A DNA stretch of 60,744 bases from a virus. Its lineage: Duplodnaviria > Heunggongvirae > Uroviricota > Caudoviricetes. A program made the translations under genes and the position numbers. This document shows, one piece after another, positions 19,222 through 32,296 of this stretch (the first letter of the stretch is position 1; each line of letters begins with the position of its first letter). The notes under the pieces are model-generated. The model did not search any database. It saw only the letters and a list, made by a program, of their open reading frames with translations, and was not told where the DNA came from. Location: IMG/VR virus record IMGVR_UViG_3300005337_000004, positions 1 through 60,744 of that record. One strand, given 5' to 3'.

Positions 19222-19446
19222 ATGGGGCGACCTGCAACTGGCAAGACACCGATCCAGCATGTCCGCGCGCCGAAAGAAGAGTGGGACATCTACAAGGGCG
19301 CGGCCGGCTTGGTAGGTAGCGACGCCTCGAAGATCACACGCGAGTTCGTCCGCTGGTTTACCCGGCAGCCCGGCGCGAAACTCCCGCAACGACCAACCGT
19401 CGAACAGATCGCCGAGGTCGTTGGCAAGCGGGAGTCCGAACAGTGA
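19222..19446 (+). CDS. ribbon-helix-helix DNA-binding protein
   Basis: MGRPATGKTPIQHVRAPKEEW...SKITREFVRWF. Confidence 0.7.
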   Translation: MGRPATGKTPIQHVRAPKEEWDIYKGAAGLVGSDASKITREFVRWFTRQPGAKLPQRPTVEQIAEVVGKRESEQ

Positions 19447-20042
19447 CCGAGGTCGTTTACGTCATCGGCGCCTGCGGATCGCCACGCGCCAAGATAGGCC
19501 GGTCCAAGAGCGTCGGAACGCGCCTGGGCACTATCCAGCGCATGAGTCCGATCCCGCTGTCAATCCTCTGGCAAACAGATGGCGGATCCGAACTGGAGTC
19601 CGCCCTCCATCGCCGCTTCGATGCCCACCGCGTCCACGGCGAATGGTTCGATTTTGGCGACAGGGACCCGGCAGTCGAAGTCGCGGCGGCAGTCGATGGC
19701 ATCCGGGCAGAATTGACAGAAGCAGCCACAGCAGCCGAGGAGAGAGAACGTCGCAGGCGCGAACGGCGCCAACCGGCAAACTACGGCGAGGCACTGCGGT
19801 TCCTTGACGAGGCCACCGTAAGAGTTCTACGGCTCCGCACTGCACTGGCTGAAGCCGAGACGGAAGCAACCGAGGCGGTAGCCGCAGCCCTGAAGTCCTG
19901 CCTCGCCGCCGGCGCCAACCGCACCGAGGTTCAGAAGCACTCGCCGTTCAGCCCGCCGACCGTGCGCAAAATCGGCGAGGACGCTGGGATCGCGCCGGAC
20001 GAGCGATACGTGCGGTCCATCAAGGACAAGCCCGAGTCCTGA
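19443..20042 (+). CDS. T5orf172/MUG113-like GIY-YIG domain fused to C-terminal HTH
   Basis: VYVIG...KIGRS...RL..IQ...LESALHRRF...GEWF. Confidence 0.8.
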   Translation: MTEVVYVIGACGSPRAKIGRSKSVGTRLGTIQRMSPIPLSILWQTDGGSELESALHRRFDAHRVHGEWFDFGDRDPAVEVAAAVDGIRAELTEAATAAEERERRRRERRQPANYGEALRFLDEATVRVLRLRTALAEAETEATEAVAAALKSCLAAGANRTEVQKHSPFSPPTVRKIGEDAGIAPDERYVRSIKDKPES

Positions 20043-20103: not shown

Positions 20104-20430
20104 TCAGAACATCCCGCCGATCTCGTGGAACCCGGCCGCACACTCCCGCAGCCGCCCCGCCAAGCTCGCCACACCCTCGGGCCGCTCCTCGTCGTCGAGG
20201 TCCGCCATCCACTCGCCGATCAGCGTCTCGGCAACCTGCGCAGCCGACGCCAGCGCCATCGACAGATCCAACGCCAGGCAACCCGGATCCAGGGAGCGCA
20301 CGCCGGGCAGTCTCTCGGCCATGCGGCGGGTCAACTCTTGAACCACACGGCCGTCGGAATCCACGGTCTTGGCGCGGATGGCGTCGAACAGGTCGGCGTT
20401 CACCCAGGGCTCGAAATCGGTGTCGGTCAT
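20104..20430 (-). CDS. hypothetical protein
   Basis: ATGA overlap with Panacea gene. Confidence 0.65.
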   Translation of the reverse strand: MTDTDFEPWVNADLFDAIRAKTVDSDGRVVQELTRRMAERLPGVRSLDPGCLALDLSMALASAAQVAETLIGEWMADLDDEERPEGVASLAGRLRECAAGFHEIGGMF

Positions 20431-20900
20431 GATGCTCCTTCAGTCACGTCGCACGCGGCAGCAACCAGCACCTCGAAGTGCTCAGCAATCTCGTCCGTTC
20501 GAAGCTGCTCGCTGCTACGCTCCAGCACGCCCACGCCGGCCCGCTCACGGGCCAGCAGCCATGGCGGTTCCCCGTGGGTCATCTGCGACAGGACATGCGC
20601 GCTAAGGCCACCCAGGCTCTCAAGGACGATGTCGACCGACTCCCGCTCGCCGTCGTCAAGCGCGCCCGGATCGCCGTCAATGTCGCCGTCGTTCAGTTCG
20701 AACCGGCCGCGGTGCTGCTGGTACAGCACTGGGGCGACCGGGCCGTTCGCCCACGCCTCAAAAGGCTCGTCAAACAGCGGCCGGTCCTCCCACGCCAGGT
20801 GGTAGCCGTTTGCGTAGTAGCAAAGCCTGTGAAGTTTCATCGCGGTCATCGGGCCAGCCTGTTTCAGCACGTGCGCGGCAACGTCGGCTATCCGGGTCAT
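20427..20900 (-). CDS. Panacea-domain (DUF4065/SocA-like) antitoxin
   Basis: MKLHRLCYYA..HL...PLF.EPFEAWANGPV..LY; LSQMTHGEPPW..AR. Confidence 0.85.
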   Translation of the reverse strand: MTRIADVAAHVLKQAGPMTAMKLHRLCYYANGYHLAWEDRPLFDEPFEAWANGPVAPVLYQQHRGRFELNDGDIDGDPGALDDGERESVDIVLESLGGLSAHVLSQMTHGEPPWLLARERAGVGVLERSSEQLRTDEIAEHFEVLVAAACDVTEGAS

Positions 20901-21406
20901 GACGGGTCCGCATCCGGATCGTGAACCGGGCACCCAACAGTCAGCACGCCGTCGCGCACAAGCTTGTCGTCCGGCTGGTAGGTGTGCGGACACTCGCACG
21001 CCGGCCGCGGCGGCGCGTCAGCGAACGGAAGCCCCTTCTCCCACGAGGCCTCTATCAGCCACCGTCCGGGGTGCCGGATGAACTTCTGTTCCCGGCCCGT
21101 GTCCTTGCAGAAGTCCCGGAACTCCTCGGCCGCGGCAAGGATCGCCGCCGGGTCGGCGCCGTCGCTGATTTGCTTGGCGTAACGGGTTCGGGCGTGTGCC
21201 TTGCTGACCTTGCGCGGGTAGACGCGCCAGAACTCTTCGAAGGTGCCGACGAGCGGGTCCGGCAGTACCGGGGTCACGCGCCGTTGTCTCGGAACCGGTT
21301 CCAACGACGGTTCGGGATTCGCGGGCTGATCGCAAGGTTCCGGCACCGCGTTCAGTTCGAGCTGCGAAGTTGGCGGCTGTACGTAAAACAGCAGGTCGTC
21401 GGACAT
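20897..21406 (-). CDS. phage replication-associated protein (initiator C-terminal-like domain)
   Basis: FEEFWRVYPRKVSKAHA...FIRHPGRWL. Confidence 0.7.
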   Translation of the reverse strand: MSDDLLFYVQPPTSQLELNAVPEPCDQPANPEPSLEPVPRQRRVTPVLPDPLVGTFEEFWRVYPRKVSKAHARTRYAKQISDGADPAAILAAAEEFRDFCKDTGREQKFIRHPGRWLIEASWEKGLPFADAPPRPACECPHTYQPDDKLVRDGVLTVGCPVHDPDADPS

Positions 21407-21418
21407 GGTTCCTCCTGA

Positions 21419-22453
21419 CTAGAACGTGCCTTCGTAGGCATCAGGATCGGTGGGGTTCTGCCAGCCCACGTGCCCGCCCTTCGGCGGGCGGTAGGCGTCG
21501 GCATCGGGGTTCTCATACGTGCGGTGCCCGGTTGCTTTGACAAGCGGCGGCTTGATGACGAACTCCTTTTGAAGCCGATACCGCCACACGAGAAAGCGGC
21601 TGTCGGCCCCGTCCAGGCCGGCTTCGCACTTGGCTGCGAGTGCATCGTGAGTCCAACCCTCAACAAGCCACCGGGCGACGTCGTTGGCGAGCATGGCCCG
21701 TTCCAGGGGGCTGGGCTGCCGGTCGTGCGGGAGCTTGTCAACGAAGATCCGTGCCTGCTTCATCGTTTCGTCGTCGGCGACGAAGTCGACGACCTTCCCG
21801 GCCGGTGCATGGCGGGTCGGGATGTTTTCCCCGCCCTCCCCCCCCTCCTGCACCACCACCCCCTCCTCCGACGCGGGGAACCATTCGGGAGGTCCAGCGG
21901 CGGCGGGTGGGGGTGGTCGATCTAGAGGGGAGTTCTTACCTGAGGGGATAAGAGGGGTGGGGGTTAGCTCCTGGCTAACCCGTTCTGTAGCTGTGGGATA
22001 ACCCAAACGGCTGCTTGGGTTATCTGGGGGATAACCCATCCCCGTTGAATGGGTTAGCTGAGGGCTAACGCATTCGACCTCAGGTTGGGTTACCTCCTGG
22101 CTAACGCGCTCGGGGCGCGTGCACTGACCCCACAGCCCGTCGTGCGGGGCGTCCGGACACAAGACGGGGATGCGGTAGATGGCGTGCTGACCCGGGCGGC
22201 CGGCCATCTGTCGCCCCTTATGAACGGCGTACTCCAAAACGTTCTTGCGCTTGAGTGCGTCCAGGGCTACGCGCCAACTGTCCGCCTTCTTGCCGACTCG
22301 ACGCAGGATGTAGTCGGCGTGGACGGACTTGAAGGTCTCGCGGGTGACGTCGTTGGCGTTCTCCGCTAGGACGATCAGATCGTCGCGCTCGCCCTTGGTC
22401 AGCCCTGCGTCCTGCCAGTGGTTCATGACCTCGACGATTAGCTTGACGCCCAT
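21419..22453 (-). CDS. replication initiator 1 (N-terminal HTH, internal iterons)
   Basis: Lambda-O-like layout: HTH, repeat-encoded linker (RVSQEVTQ/RVSQELTP), helical C-terminus. Confidence 0.7.
   Translation of the reverse strand: MGVKLIVEVMNHWQDAGLTKGERDDLIVLAENANDVTRETFKSVHADYILRRVGKKADSWRVALDALKRKNVLEYAVHKGRQMAGRPGQHAIYRIPVLCPDAPHDGLWGQCTRPERVSQEVTQPEVECVSPQLTHSTGMGYPPDNPSSRLGYPTATERVSQELTPTPLIPSGKNSPLDRPPPPAAAGPPEWFPASEEGVVVQEGGEGGENIPTRHAPAGKVVDFVADDETMKQARIFVDKLPHDRQPSPLERAMLANDVARWLVEGWTHDALAAKCEAGLDGADSRFLVWRYRLQKEFVIKPPLVKATGHRTYENPDADAYRPPKGGHVGWQNPTDPDAYEGTF
21961..22107. repeat. Five 21-bp palindromic iterons, putative origin 1
   Basis: GGGTTA(G/T/C)C-N5-G(C/A)TAAC(C/G)C at 21961, 21984 (half-degenerate), 22017, 22051, 22087. 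Confidence 0.8.
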
Positions 22454-22509
22454 TAGCGAACCACCGCCCCGCAGGCGATAGATGATGCTATGGTGGTCTT
22501 GAACTCCAT
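22453..22509 (-). CDS. 18-aa leader ORF coupled to initiator 1
   Basis: AGGAG 7 nt before ATG; its TAA overlaps the initiator ATG (TAATG). Confidence 0.4.
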   Translation of the reverse strand: MEFKTTIASSIACGAVVR

Positions 22510-22857
22510 ATGTGCGCTCCTGCTTTCGAGATGGCGGGTCGTACTTTCGGCGAGGGTGGTGCCTCGTCGTCCTGATACCGGCCCTTCGTGGCCGGTATCG
22601 GTGTTTCTGTACGAAAATCTTACCGTGATCAGGGTGCTGCTGGGCCCCAAAACACCGACTCTGACCTGCTCCGGAGCACCTTTACGATCACTTTGCCAAG
22701 CGGTATGGACCACCACCCACTCAGGGTGATGAGTCCAGCGCAAACCAGCCCGATCAACACCGCCCACGGCTACCGTGTAACCAGCCCCGACCTGCGGTTT
22801 CCGCAACACCCAGACACCGCACGCGGGCATCATCGGGTTTTGATCCAGGAGGTACGG

Positions 22858-23247
22858 ATGCGTCGCATGCCCATTGCGTCTGCCGCAGTTGTTCTGGTGC
22901 TCGCCGTGTGTGCGAGCTCCCGTAGCGATGTGGCTGTTCAGTTCACGGGCCCCGAGCCGGCCAGCAACTCCACGGCCCAGCCGCCCGTGTGCACCCTGGC
23001 CCCGACAGGCGACGTGATTGTGCGCGTGGTCGTGCCGGGTCTGCCGGCGTTCGCGATGCGCATGGGCGGTATCGATCAGGTCCGCTGCGCGACGATGTTC
23101 GATGTGATTGCCAGGACCACCACGTCCGCGCCGGGTTACTGCACGACCGTTGCTTGGTTGCAGGACAACGCCGGCTGCGACTTCGGCTTCGTACCCGCAC
23201 CGCCGCCGCGGGACGTGCAGGTGTCCGCTGGTGGCGGCTGCGGCTGA
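22858..23247 (+). CDS. putative lipoprotein/exported protein, paralog of 23932-24354
   Basis: AGGAGG RBS; signal peptide with atypical LAVC; shared Cys pattern. Confidence 0.65.
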   Translation: MRRMPIASAAVVLVLAVCASSRSDVAVQFTGPEPASNSTAQPPVCTLAPTGDVIVRVVVPGLPAFAMRMGGIDQVRCATMFDVIARTTTSAPGYCTTVAWLQDNAGCDFGFVPAPPPRDVQVSAGGGCG

Positions 23248-23343
23248 TGAGCGGATCAGCAACGATCCGGACACGGGCCGTAGCATCAGGGCGTCGGGCC
23301 CGTAGCGTGGCCGGGTCTGTCGTCGATCCCTGGGGGGATTCAC

Positions 23344-23922
23344 ATGCGCCGAACCCTGTCCGCTGCCGCCGCGGTCGCGCTCGCTACGGGACTCACCGCC
23401 TGCTCGTCGAGCAAGGTCAGCACCACGCCGGCTAACAGCCCCACCGTGCCAGCTGCCGCCGCACACAGCACCGCACCATCCACGGCCGCCACCACGTCGG
23501 CGTCGCAGAAGAAAGCCGGCCTCGGCGACACCATTGAGATCAGCGGCCGGGACACCAAACTCGCCGTGACCCTCGTGAAGATCGTCGACCCGGCGAAGGG
23601 GTCCGACGACATCATCGTTCCCGACGCGGGCAAGCACTTCGTTGCCGTTCAGGTCCGCATCGTCAACAAGGGCCAGAAGGTGTACTCCGACGACCCGGCC
23701 GCCGACGTGAAGGTCAAGAACGCGGTCGGCGAGACGATGAGCATCGCGTTCGCCACGACCACGGCCGGGGCGGACATGCCGAACAGCGTGGATCTGACGC
23801 CGGGCGATACGGCGCTGGGTTTCGTCGACTTCCAGGTCCCGGACGGCCAGAAGATCGCCCAGGTGCAGTATGCGCTGCTCAGTTTCGGCGGCGACTCCGT
23901 TGCGCAGTGGACGATCGGCTAG
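23344..23922 (+). CDS. DUF4352-like lipoprotein
   Basis: Lipobox LTAC; GLGDTIEI, GKHFVAVQVRIVNKG, LTPGDTALGFVDFQVP. Confidence 0.8.
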   Translation: MRRTLSAAAAVALATGLTACSSSKVSTTPANSPTVPAAAAHSTAPSTAATTSASQKKAGLGDTIEISGRDTKLAVTLVKIVDPAKGSDDIIVPDAGKHFVAVQVRIVNKGQKVYSDDPAADVKVKNAVGETMSIAFATTTAGADMPNSVDLTPGDTALGFVDFQVPDGQKIAQVQYALLSFGGDSVAQWTIG

Positions 23923-23931
23923 GGGGCTGAC

Positions 23932-24354
23932 ATGCGACGTGTACTGATTTTCGCCGCCGCTGGTCTTGCGCTGGCCGGCTGCTCCAGCAGCGCCAGCAAG
24001 CCCGCTGCCGCCCCGGCCGCGACCAGTGTTGCGACTACCGCAACACCCCCGGCCGACTCCAGCACCAGCCAACCGCCAGCACCTGCCGAAACCTGCGCCA
24101 CACCGTTGCCGGACCGCGGCGACATCATCGAGTGGCAGAAGGCGCCCGGCCTGCCGGACTCCGCTCTGGAACTCGGCGGCACGGATCCGGAGCATTGCGT
24201 GCTGACGTTCGACACGCTGAAGACGTCGTCGCCCACTGGCAGCGGGTACTGCACCGAGGCAGCTTGGGTGTCGGACAATCCGAACTACAACCCGGATGCT
24301 GTACCGGCTCCGAGGCTGGAGAAAGTCCAGGTCACGATCGGGGACTGCGGCTGA
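23932..24354 (+). CDS. lipoprotein with four conserved Cys
   Basis: Lipobox LAGC; GYCTEAAW...GDCG C-terminus. Confidence 0.8.
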   Translation: MRRVLIFAAAGLALAGCSSSASKPAAAPAATSVATTATPPADSSTSQPPAPAETCATPLPDRGDIIEWQKAPGLPDSALELGGTDPEHCVLTFDTLKTSSPTGSGYCTEAAWVSDNPNYNPDAVPAPRLEKVQVTIGDCG

Positions 24355-24484
24355 GATGGGACGCCCGGTGGCGGTCACTGATGCTGTAACGCCGCATGTG
24401 ACCAGCAGATCTTGCAAAAAAGTGAAGGCACCAAAGTATGAGGTGGCACTGACAGATGCCGCACGGCGCCGATACTCTCGAAAG

Positions 24485-24739
24485 GTGACCGCGCTCCCGA
24501 TCGAATCAGACCACCTTCCGCCGGTGCCGAACACTGTCGCCGGGATCCGCGCACTCCTGCCTGCGAACCGCCGAGCCGAGTTCGACGCCGAGCTGCTGGC
24601 CGCAGTCGACACCGAGAACCTCGACAAGATTCGGGCGTTCCGCGAGCGCTGGTGGATTCTTGCGGCGTTCGAGACGGACCCGGCGCTGCACAACATTCCG
24701 GAGGGTGAGCAGATGTTCCCCTCCCCGATCCCGCGGTGA
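24485..24739 (+). CDS. DUF6247-like protein (putative antitoxin)
   Basis: TVAGIRALLPANRRAEFDAEL...ERWW; start uncertain. Confidence 0.6.
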   Translation: MTALPIESDHLPPVPNTVAGIRALLPANRRAEFDAELLAAVDTENLDKIRAFRERWWILAAFETDPALHNIPEGEQMFPSPIPR

Positions 24740-24987
24740 CCTACTGGGAAGACCTGTGGTCCGGGACGGCGCTTGCGCAGTACGAGGCGCTTCCGCTTGC
24801 CGCCCGGGACCAGGTCGACGCGTGTGTTCGGGAGATCCGCCGGGATCCGCACGGCGCTGGCGAGGAATTGCCGGTTCAGATGAGTAGGCCGCTGTACGGC
24901 GCGCGGGCCGGGTTGGTGAACGTCGTGTACCAAATTGACGAGATCGGCGAGCCCGTGTTGATCGTGCGGGTTGTGGACCGCGGGTAG
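24736..24987 (+). CDS. RelE/ParE-like protein (putative toxin)
   Basis: WSGTALAQYEALP...REIRRDP...VVYQI...LIVRV; GTGA overlap. Confidence 0.6.
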   Translation: MTYWEDLWSGTALAQYEALPLAARDQVDACVREIRRDPHGAGEELPVQMSRPLYGARAGLVNVVYQIDEIGEPVLIVRVVDRG

Positions 24988-25052
24988 GACTACGTCGTGA
25001 CCGACTTCGAACCGATCCTTCGTGACGCCAACCGCCGTCTAACAGCCGACCG

Positions 25053-25499
25053 CTAGTCGGCTGGGTCGTCGCGCCGCTTCAGCATCTCGTCCGCCATCGC
25101 CTGGGCCTGCTTTCGGGCCGCTTCGGCATGCTCCCGGTAGACGTCGACGAGCGTGGCCTTCAACTCGTCCGGGAGGTGCTCAAAGCCGATGATCTCCCGA
25201 GCCGGGTCGTTCGCCACGAAAGCCTCTTCACCCTCTGCCGCCGCCAACCTGGACATGGCACCGGCAACCTTCAGGTAACCGCTCGCACCCAAAGCCTCGG
25301 ACTCCGGAACGCCAAGGATCTCCGCAACGAGGAGGGCCGTTTCCGCGTCGGGTCGCGAATCCCCGTTCAGCCACCGACTTGCGGCGGTCTTGCCGAACCT
25401 CCCCTGGCCGCGGGCAACCAACTCGGCTGCATCGATACCCGCTTCAGCCATCCGGTCGGTAAGCCACTTGCCCCACAGCTCGGCTTCGTCGTTCGGCAT
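25053..25499 (-). CDS. XRE-family HTH regulator (repressor-like)
   Basis: GKTAASRWLNGDSRPDAETALLVAEILGV. Confidence 0.8.
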   Translation of the reverse strand: MPNDEAELWGKWLTDRMAEAGIDAAELVARGQGRFGKTAASRWLNGDSRPDAETALLVAEILGVPESEALGASGYLKVAGAMSRLAAAEGEEAFVANDPAREIIGFEHLPDELKATLVDVYREHAEAARKQAQAMADEMLKRRDDPAD

Positions 25500-25571
25500 G
25501 ACGCCCTCCCCCAGGCAGCTTTTAGGGGTCAACGTAGCAACGGGGAGCGGAAGCGCAACGGTGGCGAAGGA

Positions 25572-26912
25572 TCACGTCTCCGCCATGTCGATCGCCCGCG
25601 AATAATGCCCCTGGAACCCGACGGTGATTTTGCACTGCGGGCCTTGCCGGTTCTTGGCGACGATCAGTTCTAGTTCGCCGGCGCGCGGGGACTCGCGTTC
25701 GTAGTAGTCGTCCCGGTACAGCAGCACGACGATGTTGGCGTCCTGTGCGATGGTGTCGGATTCGCGAATGTCGGACAGGATGGGCCGCTTGTCGGCGCGG
25801 GCGGCGGGTGACCGATTGAGCTGGGCGCCAACGACGACGGGCACGCGGAAGTCCATGGCTATGCGCTTGATGCCACGGGACAGTCCGCCGACGTCAATGG
25901 TACGGTTCCCAGATTCTCTCTCGGGCGTGAGGATCTGCAGGTAGTCAATGACGACCAGCTCGGGCAGGGCTTGGCGGGCCTGCATGCGACGCAGGGTAGA
26001 GCGAATCCGGCCGAGGGTGACGGTGCCGTCGATAATCATGTCAAAGGGGGCGCCGAGGATCCGGCCGGCCGCTTTACCGAGCCGCTTCTGCTCGAAATCG
26101 TCGATGCTGACGTTACCGCGCAAATGATGCAGCGGCACTTTCGCCTCGGCCGCGAACAGGCGCTGCATGACCTGCTCTTTGCTCATCTCCACTGACACCA
26201 GCAGGGTGTGCTTGCCGCATTCGATGGCGGCATGCCGGGCAAAGTCGACCATCACCACTGACTTACCCATGCCGGTGGCGCCGCCCACGACCACCATGTC
26301 ACCGCCTTCGATAGGCACGGCGCCACGGAAGTCCCGGTACGGGGTGGGCAGGTAGTTGCGGGGCTTGTCGCGGTCCAGGAGGTCGTCCAGGAAGCTCTCA
26401 GCGGCATCTGCGACGGCGGTGACGTCCTGACCGCCGGTGTCGCCGGTGACAGCCTGGATTTCGGCGGCGGCCAGATCGACGATTGCGGCGGTGTCGGAAC
26501 CGTCGGTGACGTAGGACATCTGCACGATCCGGGTTCCGGCCTGCCCGAGGCGCCGCAGGATCGCGGTCTCTTTGACGATGTCGGCGTAGTAGCCGGCGTT
26601 CGCGGCGGTCGGCACCGTGTGGATCAGTTCTTGCAGGTACGGTCCGCCGCCGATTTGGTTGAAATCGCCGTTCTTGGTGAGCAGCGCACCGACGGTGACG
26701 GGGTCGGCTGGTTCGCCGCGGGCGTTGAGGTCGCAGATGGCGGCGAAGATGGTTTCGTGTGCGGGCTTGTAGAAGTCGGCGGGCGTCAGGGGCACGTCGA
26801 GGACGTCGCCGATGGCATTGGGTGAGAGCATCATGCCGCCGAGGACGCACCGTTCGGCGTCGAGGTCGGACGGCGGGGTGCGGTCGTATCCGGGCTCGTC
26901 GGGGTTGGTCAT
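25572..26912 (-). CDS. dnaB: DnaB-like replicative helicase
   Basis: AERCVLGGMM, GATGMGKS, SVEMS, IDYLQI, AQLNR, SDIRES, IVAKNRQGP. Confidence 0.95.
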   Translation of the reverse strand: MTNPDEPGYDRTPPSDLDAERCVLGGMMLSPNAIGDVLDVPLTPADFYKPAHETIFAAICDLNARGEPADPVTVGALLTKNGDFNQIGGGPYLQELIHTVPTAANAGYYADIVKETAILRRLGQAGTRIVQMSYVTDGSDTAAIVDLAAAEIQAVTGDTGGQDVTAVADAAESFLDDLLDRDKPRNYLPTPYRDFRGAVPIEGGDMVVVGGATGMGKSVVMVDFARHAAIECGKHTLLVSVEMSKEQVMQRLFAAEAKVPLHHLRGNVSIDDFEQKRLGKAAGRILGAPFDMIIDGTVTLGRIRSTLRRMQARQALPELVVIDYLQILTPERESGNRTIDVGGLSRGIKRIAMDFRVPVVVGAQLNRSPAARADKRPILSDIRESDTIAQDANIVVLLYRDDYYERESPRAGELELIVAKNRQGPQCKITVGFQGHYSRAIDMAET

Positions 26913-28081
26913 GCGGCGCTCCGTTGGTTGGCGGCCGGGTGGCCGGGTGGTGGGCTATTGGGGTGCAGGCAGCGGGCGTCATGGCCGCTTTCGTGCTCGT
27001 ACCAGCCGAAGGGGTCGCACCAGCGGCAGTCGGCGGCGGTGCGGCCGGTAGCGCCGGGGGCGGACTGTTCCGACTTCGGCGGCGTCCAGTACTCCAGGTG
27101 CTTGCGCAGGTTGTTCCAGCCGTGCGTCGCCATGTCGGCTGCGGCCAAGCACAGAAGCTCGGCGCCTTCGCCTTCGTTGAGAAGTTCGCGGGCAGTGCGA
27201 CGGATGGCGTCCGGGGCCTTCACGGGGTGCGCGGCGCCGTTGCGAGTCCTGGCCCATGCTTCGATCCAGGCCTGCACGATCGACTCGGCGGGGTCGGAGG
27301 TGTTCGGCTTGCTGAGATCTTCTTTCTCTCGGGGTTTGTTCGGATCCGCCTCGGGCGGTCGCGTGGTGACCGTAGAGAGAGAAGCTTCTTTGAGAGACTT
27401 ATTAAAGAGATCGTTTCCGCTGGTCAGGTCATGATCAAACGCGGAATTCCGAAGATCGAACGCGGAATTCCGCGCGTGATCTTCGGAATTCCGACACTCG
27501 AAACGACCTGCGGAACTACCGTGTTCTACCTGGTCAGTTCGCGTGTCGGAATTCCGACTCTCGAAAGGATGTGCGAGACCGTTCGGGGCGTCCTTCGGCC
27601 GCGCAGGTGTCGAGCCGATTGCCGGCGGATCCGCCGGACTGGCACGCCAGTCCTCGCGGTAGCTGTCCAGCTTGTCCCATGCGTTCCGCCAGCCCTGGAA
27701 CCCCTCGGGTGGCAGGTCGTTCACCTGGAAGCGACGACGAGATTCGATGCCACCTCGGCCCGTCGATGCGACCAGCCGCTCACCGTCCCGGTTCGTTACC
27801 AGGCCCAGATGGTTCAGCACCTTCAGCGCGTCTCTGACGGCGGTCAGTGAAGTCGGCTTGCCGTTTACGCCAGGCAGAAGCCAGCACAGGTGATCCAGGG
27901 TGAGGCGCCGCGACGACTGATTGTCGCCCTTCTCGATCACCAACGATCGCATGATCGCGTACAGCTGGAACGGCGTGCCGCGCAGCTCGGGATGGAGCAT
28001 CGTCCAGTCCCGTATCGGCGTGAAGGACAGGCGTAACCCGTCGGCCGCGACGAGGTCGAACGACTGATTGTCGGTGGTCAT
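26909..28081 (-). CDS. replication initiator 2 (winged HTH, internal iterons)
   Basis: FTPIRDW...FQLYAIMRSL HTH; RNS repeats; ATGA-coupled to dnaB. Confidence 0.75.
   Translation of the reverse strand: MTTDNQSFDLVAADGLRLSFTPIRDWTMLHPELRGTPFQLYAIMRSLVIEKGDNQSSRRLTLDHLCWLLPGVNGKPTSLTAVRDALKVLNHLGLVTNRDGERLVASTGRGGIESRRRFQVNDLPPEGFQGWRNAWDKLDSYREDWRASPADPPAIGSTPARPKDAPNGLAHPFESRNSDTRTDQVEHGSSAGRFECRNSEDHARNSAFDLRNSAFDHDLTSGNDLFNKSLKEASLSTVTTRPPEADPNKPREKEDLSKPNTSDPAESIVQAWIEAWARTRNGAAHPVKAPDAIRRTARELLNEGEGAELLCLAAADMATHGWNNLRKHLEYWTPPKSEQSAPGATGRTAADCRWCDPFGWYEHESGHDARCLHPNSPPPGHPAANQRSAA
27442..27556. repeat. Four CGGAATTCCG palindromic iterons in 21-bp phase, putative origin 2
   Basis: Starts 27442, 27463, 27484, 27547 (spacing 21, 21, 63). 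Confidence 0.85.
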
Positions 28082-28167
28082 CGGTTGCCTTCAGTGAGGG
28101 GTGGCGCAACGTGGCGGATGACGGGAGGGGTTGCGATCAGTCGCAGGTCCGGCTGTACGTTGTCGGG

Positions 28168-28461
28168 GTGACCGAACCAACCCCGGAGCCAACGAACGCC
28201 GAGCTGCTGGCCGCAATGAACGAGCAGGCCGCGGCGATGATGGCGCTGACCGAGATGGTGCGGCAGGGCTTCGCGCACGCCATGACGGAGGTCGCCGGCG
28301 TGAAGGGTGACGTGGCTGCCGTGAAGAACGAGGTTCAGCGGTCCGAAGCGTCCATTACGGCCCGCGTCGCCGACGTACAGAACGTGGTGCGGACGCTCAA
28401 GGCGGATTTGTCGGGGCATGTTGACGATCCCGGCGCGCATCCTCACCGACACGCGGCTTAA
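28168..28461 (+). CDS. coiled-coil hypothetical protein
   Basis: Heptad-rich ORF ending HPHRHAA. Confidence 0.65.
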   Translation: MTEPTPEPTNAELLAAMNEQAAAMMALTEMVRQGFAHAMTEVAGVKGDVAAVKNEVQRSEASITARVADVQNVVRTLKADLSGHVDDPGAHPHRHAA

Positions 28462-28509
28462 CGGGCAGCTCACGTCGGGTCTACCGGTCAACCACCGTAC
28501 TAGGCGCAC

Positions 28510-28526
28510 CAGGTTTCGCGTACTGT
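28510..28526 (-). promoter_or_regulatory. 17-bp site, left copy of inverted repeat
   Basis: CAGGTTTCGCGTACTGT is the exact reverse complement of 29975-29991. Confidence 0.75.
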
Positions 28527-28590
28527 TGCTAACCTTATCGAGAAGGTTGCACGGTTCAGCCAATCCCACGTATGCCTGAGGATTCCGCCT

Positions 28591-29124
28591 ATGCCCGATC
28601 AGCCCAAGGCTGACGACTCCACCGCCTACCTTGTGCCAACCGGCGGTGCGGACGCATGGTCCGCAGCCACTGCTGATCGCAATGGCAGCCAGCAACTTCT
28701 GGCGGTCGAGACCATCACTCCCCCGCAGCGGATCGCCGACGCGCTTCAACTCGGTGCGTCCGAGCGCGCCGTGGTTCGGCGTCGGCTTATGCTGATTGGC
28801 GGCCGGCCGGTGGAGATTGCGAACTCCTGGTACCCGGAGCTGCTGGCGCACGGCACACCGCTTGCCGACGAACGCCGGATCAAGGGTGGCGCGGCAACAG
28901 CGATTTCCGCACTCGGTCTGGTGCTGTCCTATGCCGACGAAGAGGTCGAACTGGACTCGTCCCCCACCGCGGACGAAGCCGGGCTGCTTGAAGTGCCGGA
29001 GTCCGAGCGGGTGGTGCGGCTGTTCCGCACCGCATACACGAGCGAGGACACGCCGGTCGAAGTAACTGACTCCGTGATACTGCCTGCCGGCCGGGTTCTT
29101 CAGCACCGGATTGAGGTGGGCTGA
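28591..29124 (+). CDS. stand-alone UTRA-domain protein (no HTH)
   Basis: AVVRRRLMLIGGRPVEIANSWYP...IKGG...PVEVTDSVI. Confidence 0.85.
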   Translation: MPDQPKADDSTAYLVPTGGADAWSAATADRNGSQQLLAVETITPPQRIADALQLGASERAVVRRRLMLIGGRPVEIANSWYPELLAHGTPLADERRIKGGAATAISALGLVLSYADEEVELDSSPTADEAGLLEVPESERVVRLFRTAYTSEDTPVEVTDSVILPAGRVLQHRIEVG

Positions 29125-29127
29125 GCC

Positions 29128-29901
29128 ATGGCCGACGGCGCCTACACCGATCCCCGGCCGCGACGTGAGCAGATCGCAGCAGACCTTCGAGCGGTCATCC
29201 TCGCAGGCAAGTACCCAGAGGTGCTTCCAGGGGTCAACATCCTGGCCGAGTGGTTCGACACGACGGTTAACACCATTCAGCACGCCCTGGCGATCCTGAA
29301 GGAAGAGGGGCTGATTCAGGCGGAGAAGGGCAAAGGGACCGAGATCATTGCCGAGCCGAAGATTTTGGTTCTTGCTGATCCGGACCCGCAGCTCGACGTC
29401 TACCGCTACGACTCGCTCGCCGTTGACGTCCTTCGAGTTGCGGTACCCGAGCGGAAGCGGCAGGAGCGTCTGGACGAGCGCGACCCCGAAACCGTGCCGA
29501 CGGATGTTGCCCGCCTTCTTGGCTTGAGTGCTGACGGACAGGCTGTGCGCCGCTTCAGAGTGATGCGCGTAAGGGCGACGGATGAGCCCGTCGAGGTGGA
29601 CTGGTCCTACTACCCGGTAGAGATTGCGGCAGGCACCCGCATTGCCCAGCCAGGATCGATCAAGGGCGGTGTACAGAGGATCCTCGATGAGATGGGCCTG
29701 CCCGTAGTTGACTACGAGGACCGCGTCTCGACGCGCGTTCCCACCACACAGGAACTTGAGCTGCTGCACCTGCCGCCGTTCGTGTCGGTGTTGCAGACGC
29801 TCCGAGTTGTGTGGTCGCACGACAGGAAGCCCATTGAGGCGACTGTCATGGTGAAGGGTGGTCATCGCTTCGAGTTGCTGTATCGCAGGTCCACGCATTG
29901 A
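29128..29901 (+). CDS. GntR/HutC-family regulator (KorSA/TraR-like)
   Basis: QIAADLRAVILAG...LP....LAEWF.....IQHAL..LKEEGLI...GKGT plus UTRA domain. Confidence 0.88.
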   Translation: MADGAYTDPRPRREQIAADLRAVILAGKYPEVLPGVNILAEWFDTTVNTIQHALAILKEEGLIQAEKGKGTEIIAEPKILVLADPDPQLDVYRYDSLAVDVLRVAVPERKRQERLDERDPETVPTDVARLLGLSADGQAVRRFRVMRVRATDEPVEVDWSYYPVEIAAGTRIAQPGSIKGGVQRILDEMGLPVVDYEDRVSTRVPTTQELELLHLPPFVSVLQTLRVVWSHDRKPIEATVMVKGGHRFELLYRRSTH

Positions 29902-29921
29902 TCGCACCCCCCTGTGTCTCT

Positions 29922-31197: not shown

Positions 31198-31949
31198 TGA
31201 CCGCGACCCGCCCGGCGCCCATCCAGTACCCCGGCGACTCATGGCACCGCATCGCCATCCACGAAGCCGGCCACGCCGTAGCGCACCTGCTGCTCGGCCA
31301 CCACGTCCTCGACACCAGAATCGGGCCCGGCGCCGACGGCCACATGGGCACCATCAGCGGCAACACCAGATTCACCGGCCTGAACGCCAGCGCCCTGCCC
31401 GAGCTGGTCGGTACCGCGGCTGGCGAGACCGCCGTGCTGCACCTGCTTAACCGGCAGTGGACTCCGAACGCCGACGCGATCGCCCGTGCCACCGCAAACC
31501 ACGACCGGGAACGCGCCACCAGCATCACCGCCGGAACGACGCTGCCGATCGGCATCGAAACGGCGCTGGCCACCCGGATCGTCGCCGACTACTGGGACGC
31601 GGTCGAGAATGTCGCCGACGCCCTGCGCAGGTCGGACATCGGGCGCCTCGACCAGTTCGAGATCCTGGCCGCCGCCGACCTGGGTGCCGCCGAAATCGAC
31701 TGGTCCGAGCTCTACTCCATGGCCAACAACGCCATGCCCTTCAACTCCGACCTTCAGGCCTACCTGAACGGTCCGGGGTCGCAGGAAGAGAACGTCCGTG
31801 TTGAGTTCCTGCGGCAGCTTCGCGCGCACAACATCCTTTTCAGCCCGGAAACGGCACCGCGCCATCAGGTGGTCGCCGAGATTTTCGACCGCGGGCTGCC
31901 GGAGATTCAGGCCGCGTACCAGGCCGCCGCCGAGGAGCGTGCCCGATGA
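31194..31949 (+). CDS. stand-alone M41-like HExxH metallopeptidase domain protein
   Basis: RIAIHEAGHAVA...AAGETA...HDRE...WDAVENVADAL. Confidence 0.7.
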   Translation: MMTATRPAPIQYPGDSWHRIAIHEAGHAVAHLLLGHHVLDTRIGPGADGHMGTISGNTRFTGLNASALPELVGTAAGETAVLHLLNRQWTPNADAIARATANHDRERATSITAGTTLPIGIETALATRIVADYWDAVENVADALRRSDIGRLDQFEILAAADLGAAEIDWSELYSMANNAMPFNSDLQAYLNGPGSQEENVRVEFLRQLRAHNILFSPETAPRHQVVAEIFDRGLPEIQAAYQAAAEERAR

Positions 31950-32296
31950 CCGGCTTCGACCTCAGCGACCTGGCCCTGTTCACCAACAGCGCCGGCCGCC
32001 GCGTTGTGAAAATCATCGAGATCCTCGACCCCGCCCACGACTACATCGTCCACGCCGTCGGCGGCACCGCGTACTTCGCCCACCACAGCGAACTCGAACC
32101 GCTACCCGCCGACACGCCCGCGTTCGCCGCAGACACCAGGGTCCTGGTGGCCGACGCCGGCCGTACCGGCATCGTGTCCGCCCCGGAATTCCGGGGCAAC
32201 CTGTTCGGCTACTGGCTCGACCTTGACGACACCGGCGAGCACGTGTGGGTCCCGGCCGAACTGCTGACCGCGCACGAAGGCGGTGAGCAGCGATGA
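31946..32296 (+). CDS. tandem SH3-like protein
   Basis: FGYWLDL..G..W.PA..L shared with next gene. Confidence 0.65.
   Translation: MTGFDLSDLALFTNSAGRRVVKIIEILDPAHDYIVHAVGGTAYFAHHSELEPLPADTPAFAADTRVLVADAGRTGIVSAPEFRGNLFGYWLDLDDTGEHVWVPAELLTAHEGGEQR

Follow-up and report, generated by a model that had tools for sequence, protein, structure and literature searches.

The stretch of DNA analyzed here, called the window throughout, comprises 60,744 nucleotides and corresponds to positions 1-60744 of a 124,744-bp viral record (IMGVR_UViG_3300005337_000004) that carries a 110-bp terminal repeat and is rated complete. It covers the first half of what is a complete temperate actinophage genome (124.7 kb) with three replication-initiation modules; modules A and B, each built around an initiator gene, lie within the window, and module C is located further along the same genome. 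The genome has a mean G+C content of 66% and 205 genes called from a frame plot and a codon-based gene call, and the homologues of its proteins point to a Streptomycetales-like actinomycete host among the filamentous soil bacteria, for example Streptomyces, Catenulispora or Streptacidiphilus. Modules A and B form a leftward block that stands apart from the canonical early region, which holds module C, and that adjoins a transfer-like operon. The coordinates of the features are collected in Table 1.

Table 1. Features of modules A and B, of their surroundings, and of the third initiator (positions of the window, except where the genome is named)
Feature	Position	Strand	Description
Initiator 1	21419-22453	-	344 aa; AlphaFold model and family of 71 homologues
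Origin 1 candidate	21961-22107		four 21-bp dyads, GGGTTAnC-N5-GnTAAC(CC), and a half-site at 21997-22004
G+C minimum near origin 1	21914-21953		50% G+C against the 66% genome mean; in the lowest 1.4% of the 40-bp windows of the genome
Partner of initiator 1	20897-21406	-	169 aa
SocA/Panacea-domain gene	20427-20900	-	PF13274, 4e-15; next gene in the leftward operon of initiator 1
Putative leader ORF	22456-22510	-	18 codons; AGGAG ribosome-binding site; stop overlaps the initiator 1 ATG (TAATG); from reading of the sequence
Initiator 2	26909-28081	-	390 aa; AlphaFold model, plasmid homologues
Origin 2 candidate	27442-27556		four exact CGGAATTCCG palindromes at 27442, 27463, 27484 and 27547; start-to-start 21, 21, 63
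Candidate DNA-unwinding element, origin 2	27378-27417		35% G+C; the most A+T-rich 40 bp (rank 1) of the 124.7-kb genome
Fifth CGGAATTCCG	32184-32193		extended palindrome CCCCGGAATTCCGGGG; inside gene 31946-32296 of the transfer-side operon
DnaB-family replicative helicase 1 (DnaB1)	25572-26912	-	446 aa; PF03796 6e-63, PF00772 4e-31
XRE-type HTH regulator	25053-25499 (or -25532)	-	PF01381 3e-5, phrog_3949 1.5e-9; last gene of the initiator 2/dnaB operon
Accessory block between modules	22930-24987	+	frame plot, Pfam, PHROGs
Lipoprotein-like genes	22930-23247, 23344-23922 (DUF4352), 24106-24354	+	frame plot, Pfam, PHROGs
DUF6247 gene	24485-24739	+	coupled to the RelE-like gene
RelE-like gene	24736-24987	+	convergent with the XRE gene
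Stand-alone UTRA gene and GntR/UTRA regulator	28591-29901	+	PF07702, PF00392; divergent from initiator 2
Third initiator (module C)	genome 98093-99091		matches a PHROG replication initiation protein at 1e-31; 16-bp repeats (GATATGGATGGGAAGG type) inside the gene in three copies, at 98723-98777

Initiator genes with internal repeat arrays

The initial annotation had placed two initiators on this element, each with an origin inside its own gene, and both repeat arrays proved to be real and far above chance expectation. The window has 11 copies of the motif GGGTTANC, compared with an expectation of 2.6, and seven of the 11 are crowded into 21961-22094; the full dyad (GGGTTANC-N5-GNTAAC, allowing at most one mismatch) is found at 21961, 22017, 22051 and 22087, four sites where 0.05 would be expected. 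All of the dyads and the accompanying half-site fall within the initiator 1 gene, where the array encodes amino acids 115-164 of the protein. The second array consists of exact palindromes: the window contains five copies of CGGAATTCCG (0.09 expected), four of them set on a 21-bp grid inside the initiator 2 gene, where they encode four Arg-Asn-Ser triplets (aa 175-213). The A+T-rich tract that is the candidate unwinding element of origin 2 lies 25 bp from these iterons and is likewise contained in the initiator 2 coding sequence; in one relative (L012) and in the plasmid-phage pZL12, the iterons are succeeded by comparable repeats rich in A/T and AG. The fifth copy of CGGAATTCCG, 4.6 kb from origin 2 and not present in the Catenulispora relative described below, may be a further site to which initiator 2 binds.

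AlphaFold models of the two initiators, built on 36-sequence alignments, follow a common plan in which a confident winged helix is succeeded by a long disordered linker, a confident four-helix C-domain and a tail. In initiator 1 the winged-helix N-domain spans aa 1-105, the linker aa 106-225 and the helical C-domain aa 228-295, and the conserved, acidic tail ends in ...AYEGTF. The corresponding parts of initiator 2 are aa 24-150, 157-261 and 262-335, followed by a Cys-rich, zinc-ribbon-like C-terminus that finishes in ...RSAA. In both genes, the iterons fall in the segment that encodes the disordered linker.

A similar arrangement is known from the lambda O protein, which contains the origin in its own gene, with about four dyad iterons and an A+T-rich tract, in the linker between an N-terminal winged helix and a C-terminal partner-binding domain. 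The repeat counts and the models indicate that both initiators share this design, with at least four dyad-symmetric iterons in the coding sequence of the linker; an A+T-rich region lies beside the iterons at origin 2, and origin 1 has a weak minimum at the equivalent place. Neither protein can be assigned to the lambda O family itself (Pfam Phage_rep_O), as neither has a match in Pfam at E 0.01 or below or in NCBIfam; initiator 1 also has no match in PHROG.

The two initiators had been described as unrelated. By sequence this holds, with an hhalign probability of 0.6% for the pair, but the description has to be qualified in view of their common architecture and of the proximity of both to winged helices of the HTH_36, DnaD-N and RepA_N types. 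The best fold matches of the initiator 2 N-domain are the Bacillus-type primosome protein DnaB (5wtn, Z 8.6, root-mean-square deviation 3.1 over 87 aligned residues), RepA_N (4pta, Z 7.5) and the DnaD N-domain (8ojj, Z 6.2), and the N-domain of initiator 1 finds the same three structures (5wtn at Z 6.6, 8ojj and 4pta at 6.5), on a level with MarR-type folds. The nearest Atlas clusters of both initiators, identified as language-model neighbours, carry HTH_36, DnaB_2/DnaD or RepA_N. A Foldseek search of the PDB returned generic winged-helix matches only, with E above 0.1, and profile and sequence searches found no PDB relative of either protein. The two families, unrelated by profile, may belong to one ancient winged-helix class.

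The proposed gene contents of the two modules were borne out. The start of the DnaB1 gene overlaps the stop of initiator 2 by 4 nt (ATGA), indicating translational coupling, and its product has the N- and C-terminal domains of DnaB as well as Walker A and B motifs (GKS and IDYLQ in the alignment); against TIGR00665 it scores 340 bits, under the equivalog cut-off of 385. Initiator 1 has neither a helicase nor a loader next to it. The partner gene that follows it aligns with the C-terminal part of phage families named "replication initiation protein" and "primosomal protein" in PHROGs (phrog_270, 2e-14; phrog_9327, 1e-10), and its product looks DnaD-like from a reading of its motif; searches of Pfam, NCBIfam and PDB sequences returned nothing for this product. 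Both initiators are transcribed leftward, as originally stated, and the distance of 4.5 kb given for them is correct from gene to gene (4.46 kb); the origins themselves are about 5.4 kb apart.

Relatives of the initiators and the third module

Initiator 2 belongs to a family that is found mostly on plasmids. A set of 56 homologues has 17 invariant residues, all of which are present in initiator 2. Homologues are encoded on 41 actinomycete plasmids of 18-136 kb, with up to 86% of the query covered, and on two viral contigs only. The N-domain is 41% identical (E 5e-25) to that of pZL12.82, a protein annotated as hypothetical in the GenBank record of pZL12 (also called phiZL12), for which the source is reportedly Zhong et al. 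2010, J Bacteriol 192:3747. All six relatives that were inspected have four palindromic iterons inside the initiator 2 homologue in the 1+3 pattern of origin 2, with spacings of 51-108, 21 and 21 bp; this array is seen in a Catenulispora provirus, a viral contig, pZL12.82, and Saccharopolyspora and Nocardiopsis plasmids. The iterons themselves vary from relative to relative (GGTCGGAATTCCGACC, TTCCAGAATTCCGGAA, TTCCAGGATTCTGGAA, GGGCGGAAATCCGCC and GGGCGGAATTCCGCCC). The 1+3 pattern thus stays constant while the sequence shifts among relatives with diverged N-domains, and therefore fits the prediction for a working origin. Sequence homology, which extends over the N-domain and in many members over the C-domain as well, and the internal 1+3 array with 21-bp spacing place initiator 2 in a pZL12.82-like Rep family of actinomycete plasmids. 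The gene neighbourhood has parallels as well, in that both pZL12 and an 18-kb Saccharopolyspora plasmid carry the Rep homologue beside a GntR gene with a TraB-like FtsK/SpoIIIE gene nearby. The 18-kb plasmid encodes an FtsK/SpoIIIE-like protein, GntR, the Rep homologue and ParA, with no other recognisable Rep; in five other relatives, no TraB homologue was found.

The initiator 1 family comprises 71 protein homologues, all unannotated, and 19 viral loci with the N-domain; it has no matches in plasmid or phage records and was found only in viral contigs and proviruses. At all 19 viral loci an 8-mer half-site is repeated 5-13 times within nt 290-545 of the gene, with GGGTCACC, GGGTCCGG and GGGTCCTC among the versions. 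The gene lies directly upstream of DnaB, a DnaC-like loader, or both at 14 of 18 viral loci. Three complete relatives of 80-88 kb have a full-length gene of the initiator 1 type and no DnaB family gene, and this type of initiator can therefore work without a phage helicase. Synteny in relatives had been named as a check on the two-initiator proposal, and the relatives support both arrays as origins.

Module C, at genome 98093-101913, consists in order of the third initiator, a DnaC/IstB-like loader, a second helicase (DnaB2, 39% identical to DnaB1) and a single-stranded DNA-binding protein (SSB), and is preceded upstream of the initiator by genes for an exonuclease, a RecT-like protein and an RNase T-like protein. 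It is taken to be the lytic replication module because it is placed where temperate siphoviruses keep their lytic replication genes.

A provirus of 132,775 bp in Catenulispora acidiphila DSM 44928 shares 92 of the 205 proteins of the phage in mirrored synteny. Initiator 2 is retained in it with the same iterons (60% identity), and so are DnaB1 (82%) and the lipoprotein genes, together with the DnaD-like gene (69%), which is placed directly after an orthologue of initiator 1. In that orthologue the C-domain and tail are kept, the N-domain is swapped, and the internal repeats are different. The DnaD-like partner of the provirus (L011:16640-17638) is fused to a T5orf172/MUG113-like domain, which in the phage is encoded by a separate, oppositely oriented gene (19443-20042). 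No counterpart of the third initiator was found in the provirus; at the position of module C it has an initiator of another family (phrog_8064, 2e-60), no DnaC-like gene and no DnaB2. Three initiators per genome are conserved while the cassettes are swapped.

The C-terminal tails provide a possible link between modules. The last 12 residues of initiators 1 and 3 (...NPTDPDAYEGTF and ...NSTDPNAYDGEF, encoded at window 21419-21460 and genome 99050-99091) are near-identical, acidic, and end in Phe, and this shared tail might serve as a peptide by which the initiators dock to a loader, a helicase or an SSB-client protein. At the viral loci, four of five initiators that precede a DnaC-like gene have a related tail, against none of nine directly before DnaB (Fisher p about 0.005, calculated by hand); the related tail is looser, keeping a Y-Q-x-P...D...Y...F core, and at two loci a few residues extend past the end. 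Initiators coupled to DnaB have Cys-pair ends that often finish in Ala-Ala, as in initiator 2. At 80 viral loci with the N-domain of the third initiator, the C-termini are varied and no DnaC-like neighbour was detected, so that these loci speak neither for nor against the proposed role of the tail. The tail may select the helicase route, with initiator 1 using the module C loader in trans.

Two further observations concern C-termini. The phage SSB ends in DTDPPF. Ala-Ala forms the C-terminus of fourteen of the 205 predicted proteins, among them initiator 2 (RSAA), the DnaC-like loader (RRAA) and DnaB2 (RDAA), and such ends are frequent among the homologues of both initiator families too; a protease signal similar to ssrA is one possible explanation, and a side effect of GCATGA stop/start overlaps is another.

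Surrounding genes and other features of the genome

Two long minus-strand open frames, one between the modules (22453-24933, 826 aa) and one to the right of initiator 2 (28078-29907, 609 aa), were rejected as shadow ORFs because third-position G+C in the frame plot and Pfam show plus-strand genes there; they exemplify an annotation trap in a high-G+C genome. The plus-strand genes of the first interval are the accessory block of Table 1, in which the DUF6247 and RelE-like genes are likely a toxin-antitoxin pair. Those of the second, the UTRA and GntR genes, are the head of a TraB-type transfer-like operon with a putative role in transfer. The XRE gene abuts the end of dnaB and has no divergent cro-like partner, as was noted at the outset, its other neighbour being the convergent RelE-like gene. 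No homologue of this regulator was found anywhere in the Catenulispora relative, where a UTRA-like gene follows dnaB.

Outside the window, a tyrosine integrase is encoded at 78972-80144 on the minus strand. Several of the most A+T-rich windows of the genome lie just beyond it, at 80.2-80.9 kb, and attP and the immunity region are likely to be located there beside the integrase. A search for ParA across the genome was negative, with no match for AAA_31 and a sole, sub-threshold CbiA match within dnaB. Genes with a ParB_N domain are present at 93-95 kb in the early region, close to a gene for a cytosine methylase, and lack a ParA partner. The right end of the genome (121299-124065) encodes a TROVE (Ro-like)/vWA protein and a Thg1-like tRNA-His guanylyltransferase. 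The minimum of the cumulative GC skew, near 104 kb, was not used as origin evidence, in that the skew follows the direction of transcription; a scan for promoter and terminator consensus sequences was uninformative (one promoter-like site against 1.1 expected), and a megablast of the region against phage records gave nothing useful.

Possible roles of the three modules

Our preferred reading, held with moderate confidence, is that module B is a plasmid-type replicon, of the kind expected in an actinomycete integrative and conjugative element (AICE), tied to the GntR-TraB module, that module A is a second phage-type origin, and that module C is the lytic module. Each module would act in a lambda-O-like manner, with a winged-helix protein recognizing binding repeats that lie within its own gene, in the stretch coding for the disordered linker. 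Module B (initiator 26909-28081, origin 27378-27556, helicase 25572-26912) would be a theta replicon of the pZL12.82 and actinomycete conjugative-plasmid family, divergent from GntR-TraB, and its initiator would probably engage the adjacent DnaB1 directly through the Cys-rich C-terminus. It would most likely replicate the excised element for mycelial transfer or spread, as in an AICE, rather than provide stable plasmid maintenance. Transfer of AICEs depends on autonomous replication of the excised element, which a GntR repressor holds off (PMC2440964). The initiator of module A (21419-22453, with its origin at 21961-22107 and its partner at 20897-21406) would probably recruit in trans either the loader and helicase of module C or a common host factor; the canonical lytic replication module would be module C, which lies outside the window.

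A stable plasmid prophage of the P1 or pZL12 type, with ParA/ParB partition and no integration, does not agree with what the genome contains and is unlikely for this actinophage, because a tyrosine integrase is present, ParA is absent, and the relative is an integrated provirus. The initial annotation had offered a choice between separate lytic and plasmid or transfer replicons on the one hand and a fusion of a phage with a second element on the other. Separate replicons are supported, with initiator 2 in a plasmid family and initiator 1 in a family that is viral only, but the dichotomy is incomplete: a third, canonical module exists at 98.1-101.9 kb, so that to call initiator 1 the lytic one would be too simple. 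A fusion remains a plausible reading, but since the layout is kept in the syntenic Catenulispora provirus, it would have to be an old event.

Several points weigh against the preferred reading. That the arrays fire as origins, all three of them, is something we infer from sequence, models and relatives, and the life-cycle stage of each origin and the partners of the tails are likewise inferred. The tract at 21914-21953, at 50% G+C, is a weak candidate for the unwinding element of origin 1. For the modeled N-domains the fold matches reach middling scores (Z 6.5-8.6), which are similar to those of generic MarR-like winged helices. The identity of pZL12.82 with the experimentally defined repA of pZL12 is unconfirmed, and the transfer role of the TraB-like gene is putative. 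The correlation between tail and partner comes from 14 partly related loci, and the Catenulispora relative keeps the initiator 1 tail with no DnaC-like or DnaB2 homologue, so that a host factor is equally possible as the tail partner. A bolder version of the preferred reading, which we consider improbable as a whole, has the three origins in a division of labour: the plasmid-type origin with its own helicase would serve virion-free, TraB-type mycelial spread, the two phage-type origins would share a loader by way of the 12-residue tail, and the type of tail (acidic and ending in Phe versus Cys-rich and ending in Ala-Ala) would be a code for the helicase route.

A competing explanation of the same genes is that all three modules serve lytic replication, either redundantly or as alternatives specific for host or stage (e.g. 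early theta versus late), with no plasmid or transfer role for any of them. The phage-like origin-in-gene design of all three and the absence of ParA agree with such an arrangement, as does the fact that initiator 2 is always coupled to DnaB in phage contexts and is not in its plasmid versions; the cassette swaps at two of three positions between the relatives also look like ordinary mosaic exchange of replication modules. We nevertheless regard it as rather unlikely, given that the initiator 2 family is overwhelmingly plasmid-borne (41 plasmids versus two viral contigs), that initiator 2 keeps its plasmid neighbourhood of GntR and TraB-like genes, and that modules A and B sit in a leftward block apart from the early region with module C. 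It is also conceivable that one of the two modules in the window no longer fires and survives as a regulator with an operator array, as an incompatibility or exclusion decoy against related elements, or as what is left of an old co-integration. In iteron plasmids it is common for iteron-binding Rep proteins to regulate their own expression, and module A in particular invites the suspicion, with no helicase or loader of its own, a weak adjacent A+T-rich element, and a third, complete module elsewhere in the genome. Against this stand the intact reading frames of both initiators, with every family-invariant residue kept, and the complete relatives that carry an initiator-1-type protein without a phage DnaB. 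The relative has moreover exchanged the initiator 1 N-domain jointly with the repeats while retaining the C-domain, tail and DnaD-like partner, as expected under selection for a working origin, and we judge a silent module to be distinctly unlikely.

A chimeric assembly of two elements, which the initial annotation had named as one of the findings that would undo its proposal, could in principle explain the co-occurrence, since the contig is derived from a metagenome and the 110-bp terminal repeat could be an assembly overlap. The chromosomal provirus of C. acidiphila, however, has 92 of the 205 proteins in the same order and both modules with the same neighbours, and homologues of both initiators with 83-85% identity occur on contigs of about 127 kb. 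The retention of three initiators in a syntenic provirus rules out an assembly chimera for practical purposes, making it exceedingly improbable, and argues against a dead relic.

Returning to the preferred reading, the individual modules have well-studied counterparts. The lambda O protein with ori-lambda, the SPP1 G38P protein with oriL (PMC5615212), and RepA_N initiators such as pSK41 Rep all resemble the present initiators in having the origin in the initiator gene, in its linker location, and in the helicase or loader gene that follows; they differ in having no detectable sequence homology to them, and the actinophage has three such units, two with their own DnaB and one without an adjacent helicase or loader. 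Phage P1 likewise combines separate pairs of initiator and origin, using RepA and oriR for the plasmid prophage and RepL and oriL for lytic growth, with oriL located inside repL (PMC9948254). The P1 proteins belong to other families, and P1 has partition genes and does not integrate; the present phage has three modules and encodes helicases, and one of its replicons has a conjugation-like module attached to it.

The closest parallel to module B is the Streptomyces plasmid-phage pZL12/phiZL12 (PMC7157519, PMC4487206), which is a Streptomycetales tailed phage with N-domain homology, a 1+3 array with 21-bp spacing within the gene, and GntR and FtsK/SpoIIIE neighbours. pZL12 has ParA and ParB (PMC4487206) and lives as a plasmid, unlike the present phage with its integrase, lack of ParA, integrated relative and two further initiators; pZL12.82 also has no adjacent DnaB, and only its N-domain aligns with initiator 2. 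The AICEs pSAM2, SLP1 and pMEA300 combine an integrase, a GntR-family repressor, an initiator and an FtsK-like transfer gene, and replication of pSAM2 is needed for its transfer (PMC2440964). A comparable set may exist in the actinophage, where GntR, initiator and integrase are present and the TraB-like gene is putative, with the integrase 50 kb from the rep gene. AICEs differ in using RepSA (rolling-circle), RepAM or Prim-Pol initiators, in their size of 9-24 kb, and in having no virion genes; the module described here lies inside a 125-kb tailed phage and has its own DnaB.

Initiators with the origin in their own gene and dual-replicon phages such as P1 and pZL12 are thus already known. The actinophage seems to have been assembled from several replicons, which is unusual, although the principle is not new; as far as we found, the literature contains no description of three initiator/origin units and two helicases on one integrating phage, kept in a relative. 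The analysis defines two large initiator families, unannotated until now, from Streptomycetales elements, the one carried by phages and the other by plasmids, together with the logic of their iterons, and both should be useful for annotating origins and for building actinomycete vectors. Catenulispora acidiphila DSM 44928, the strain that harbours the related provirus, can be cultured, and experiments are thus feasible. If the proposed roles are true, a phage would retain an AICE-like replicon for movement without virions, and short C-terminal tails would set the route by which an initiator loads its helicase.

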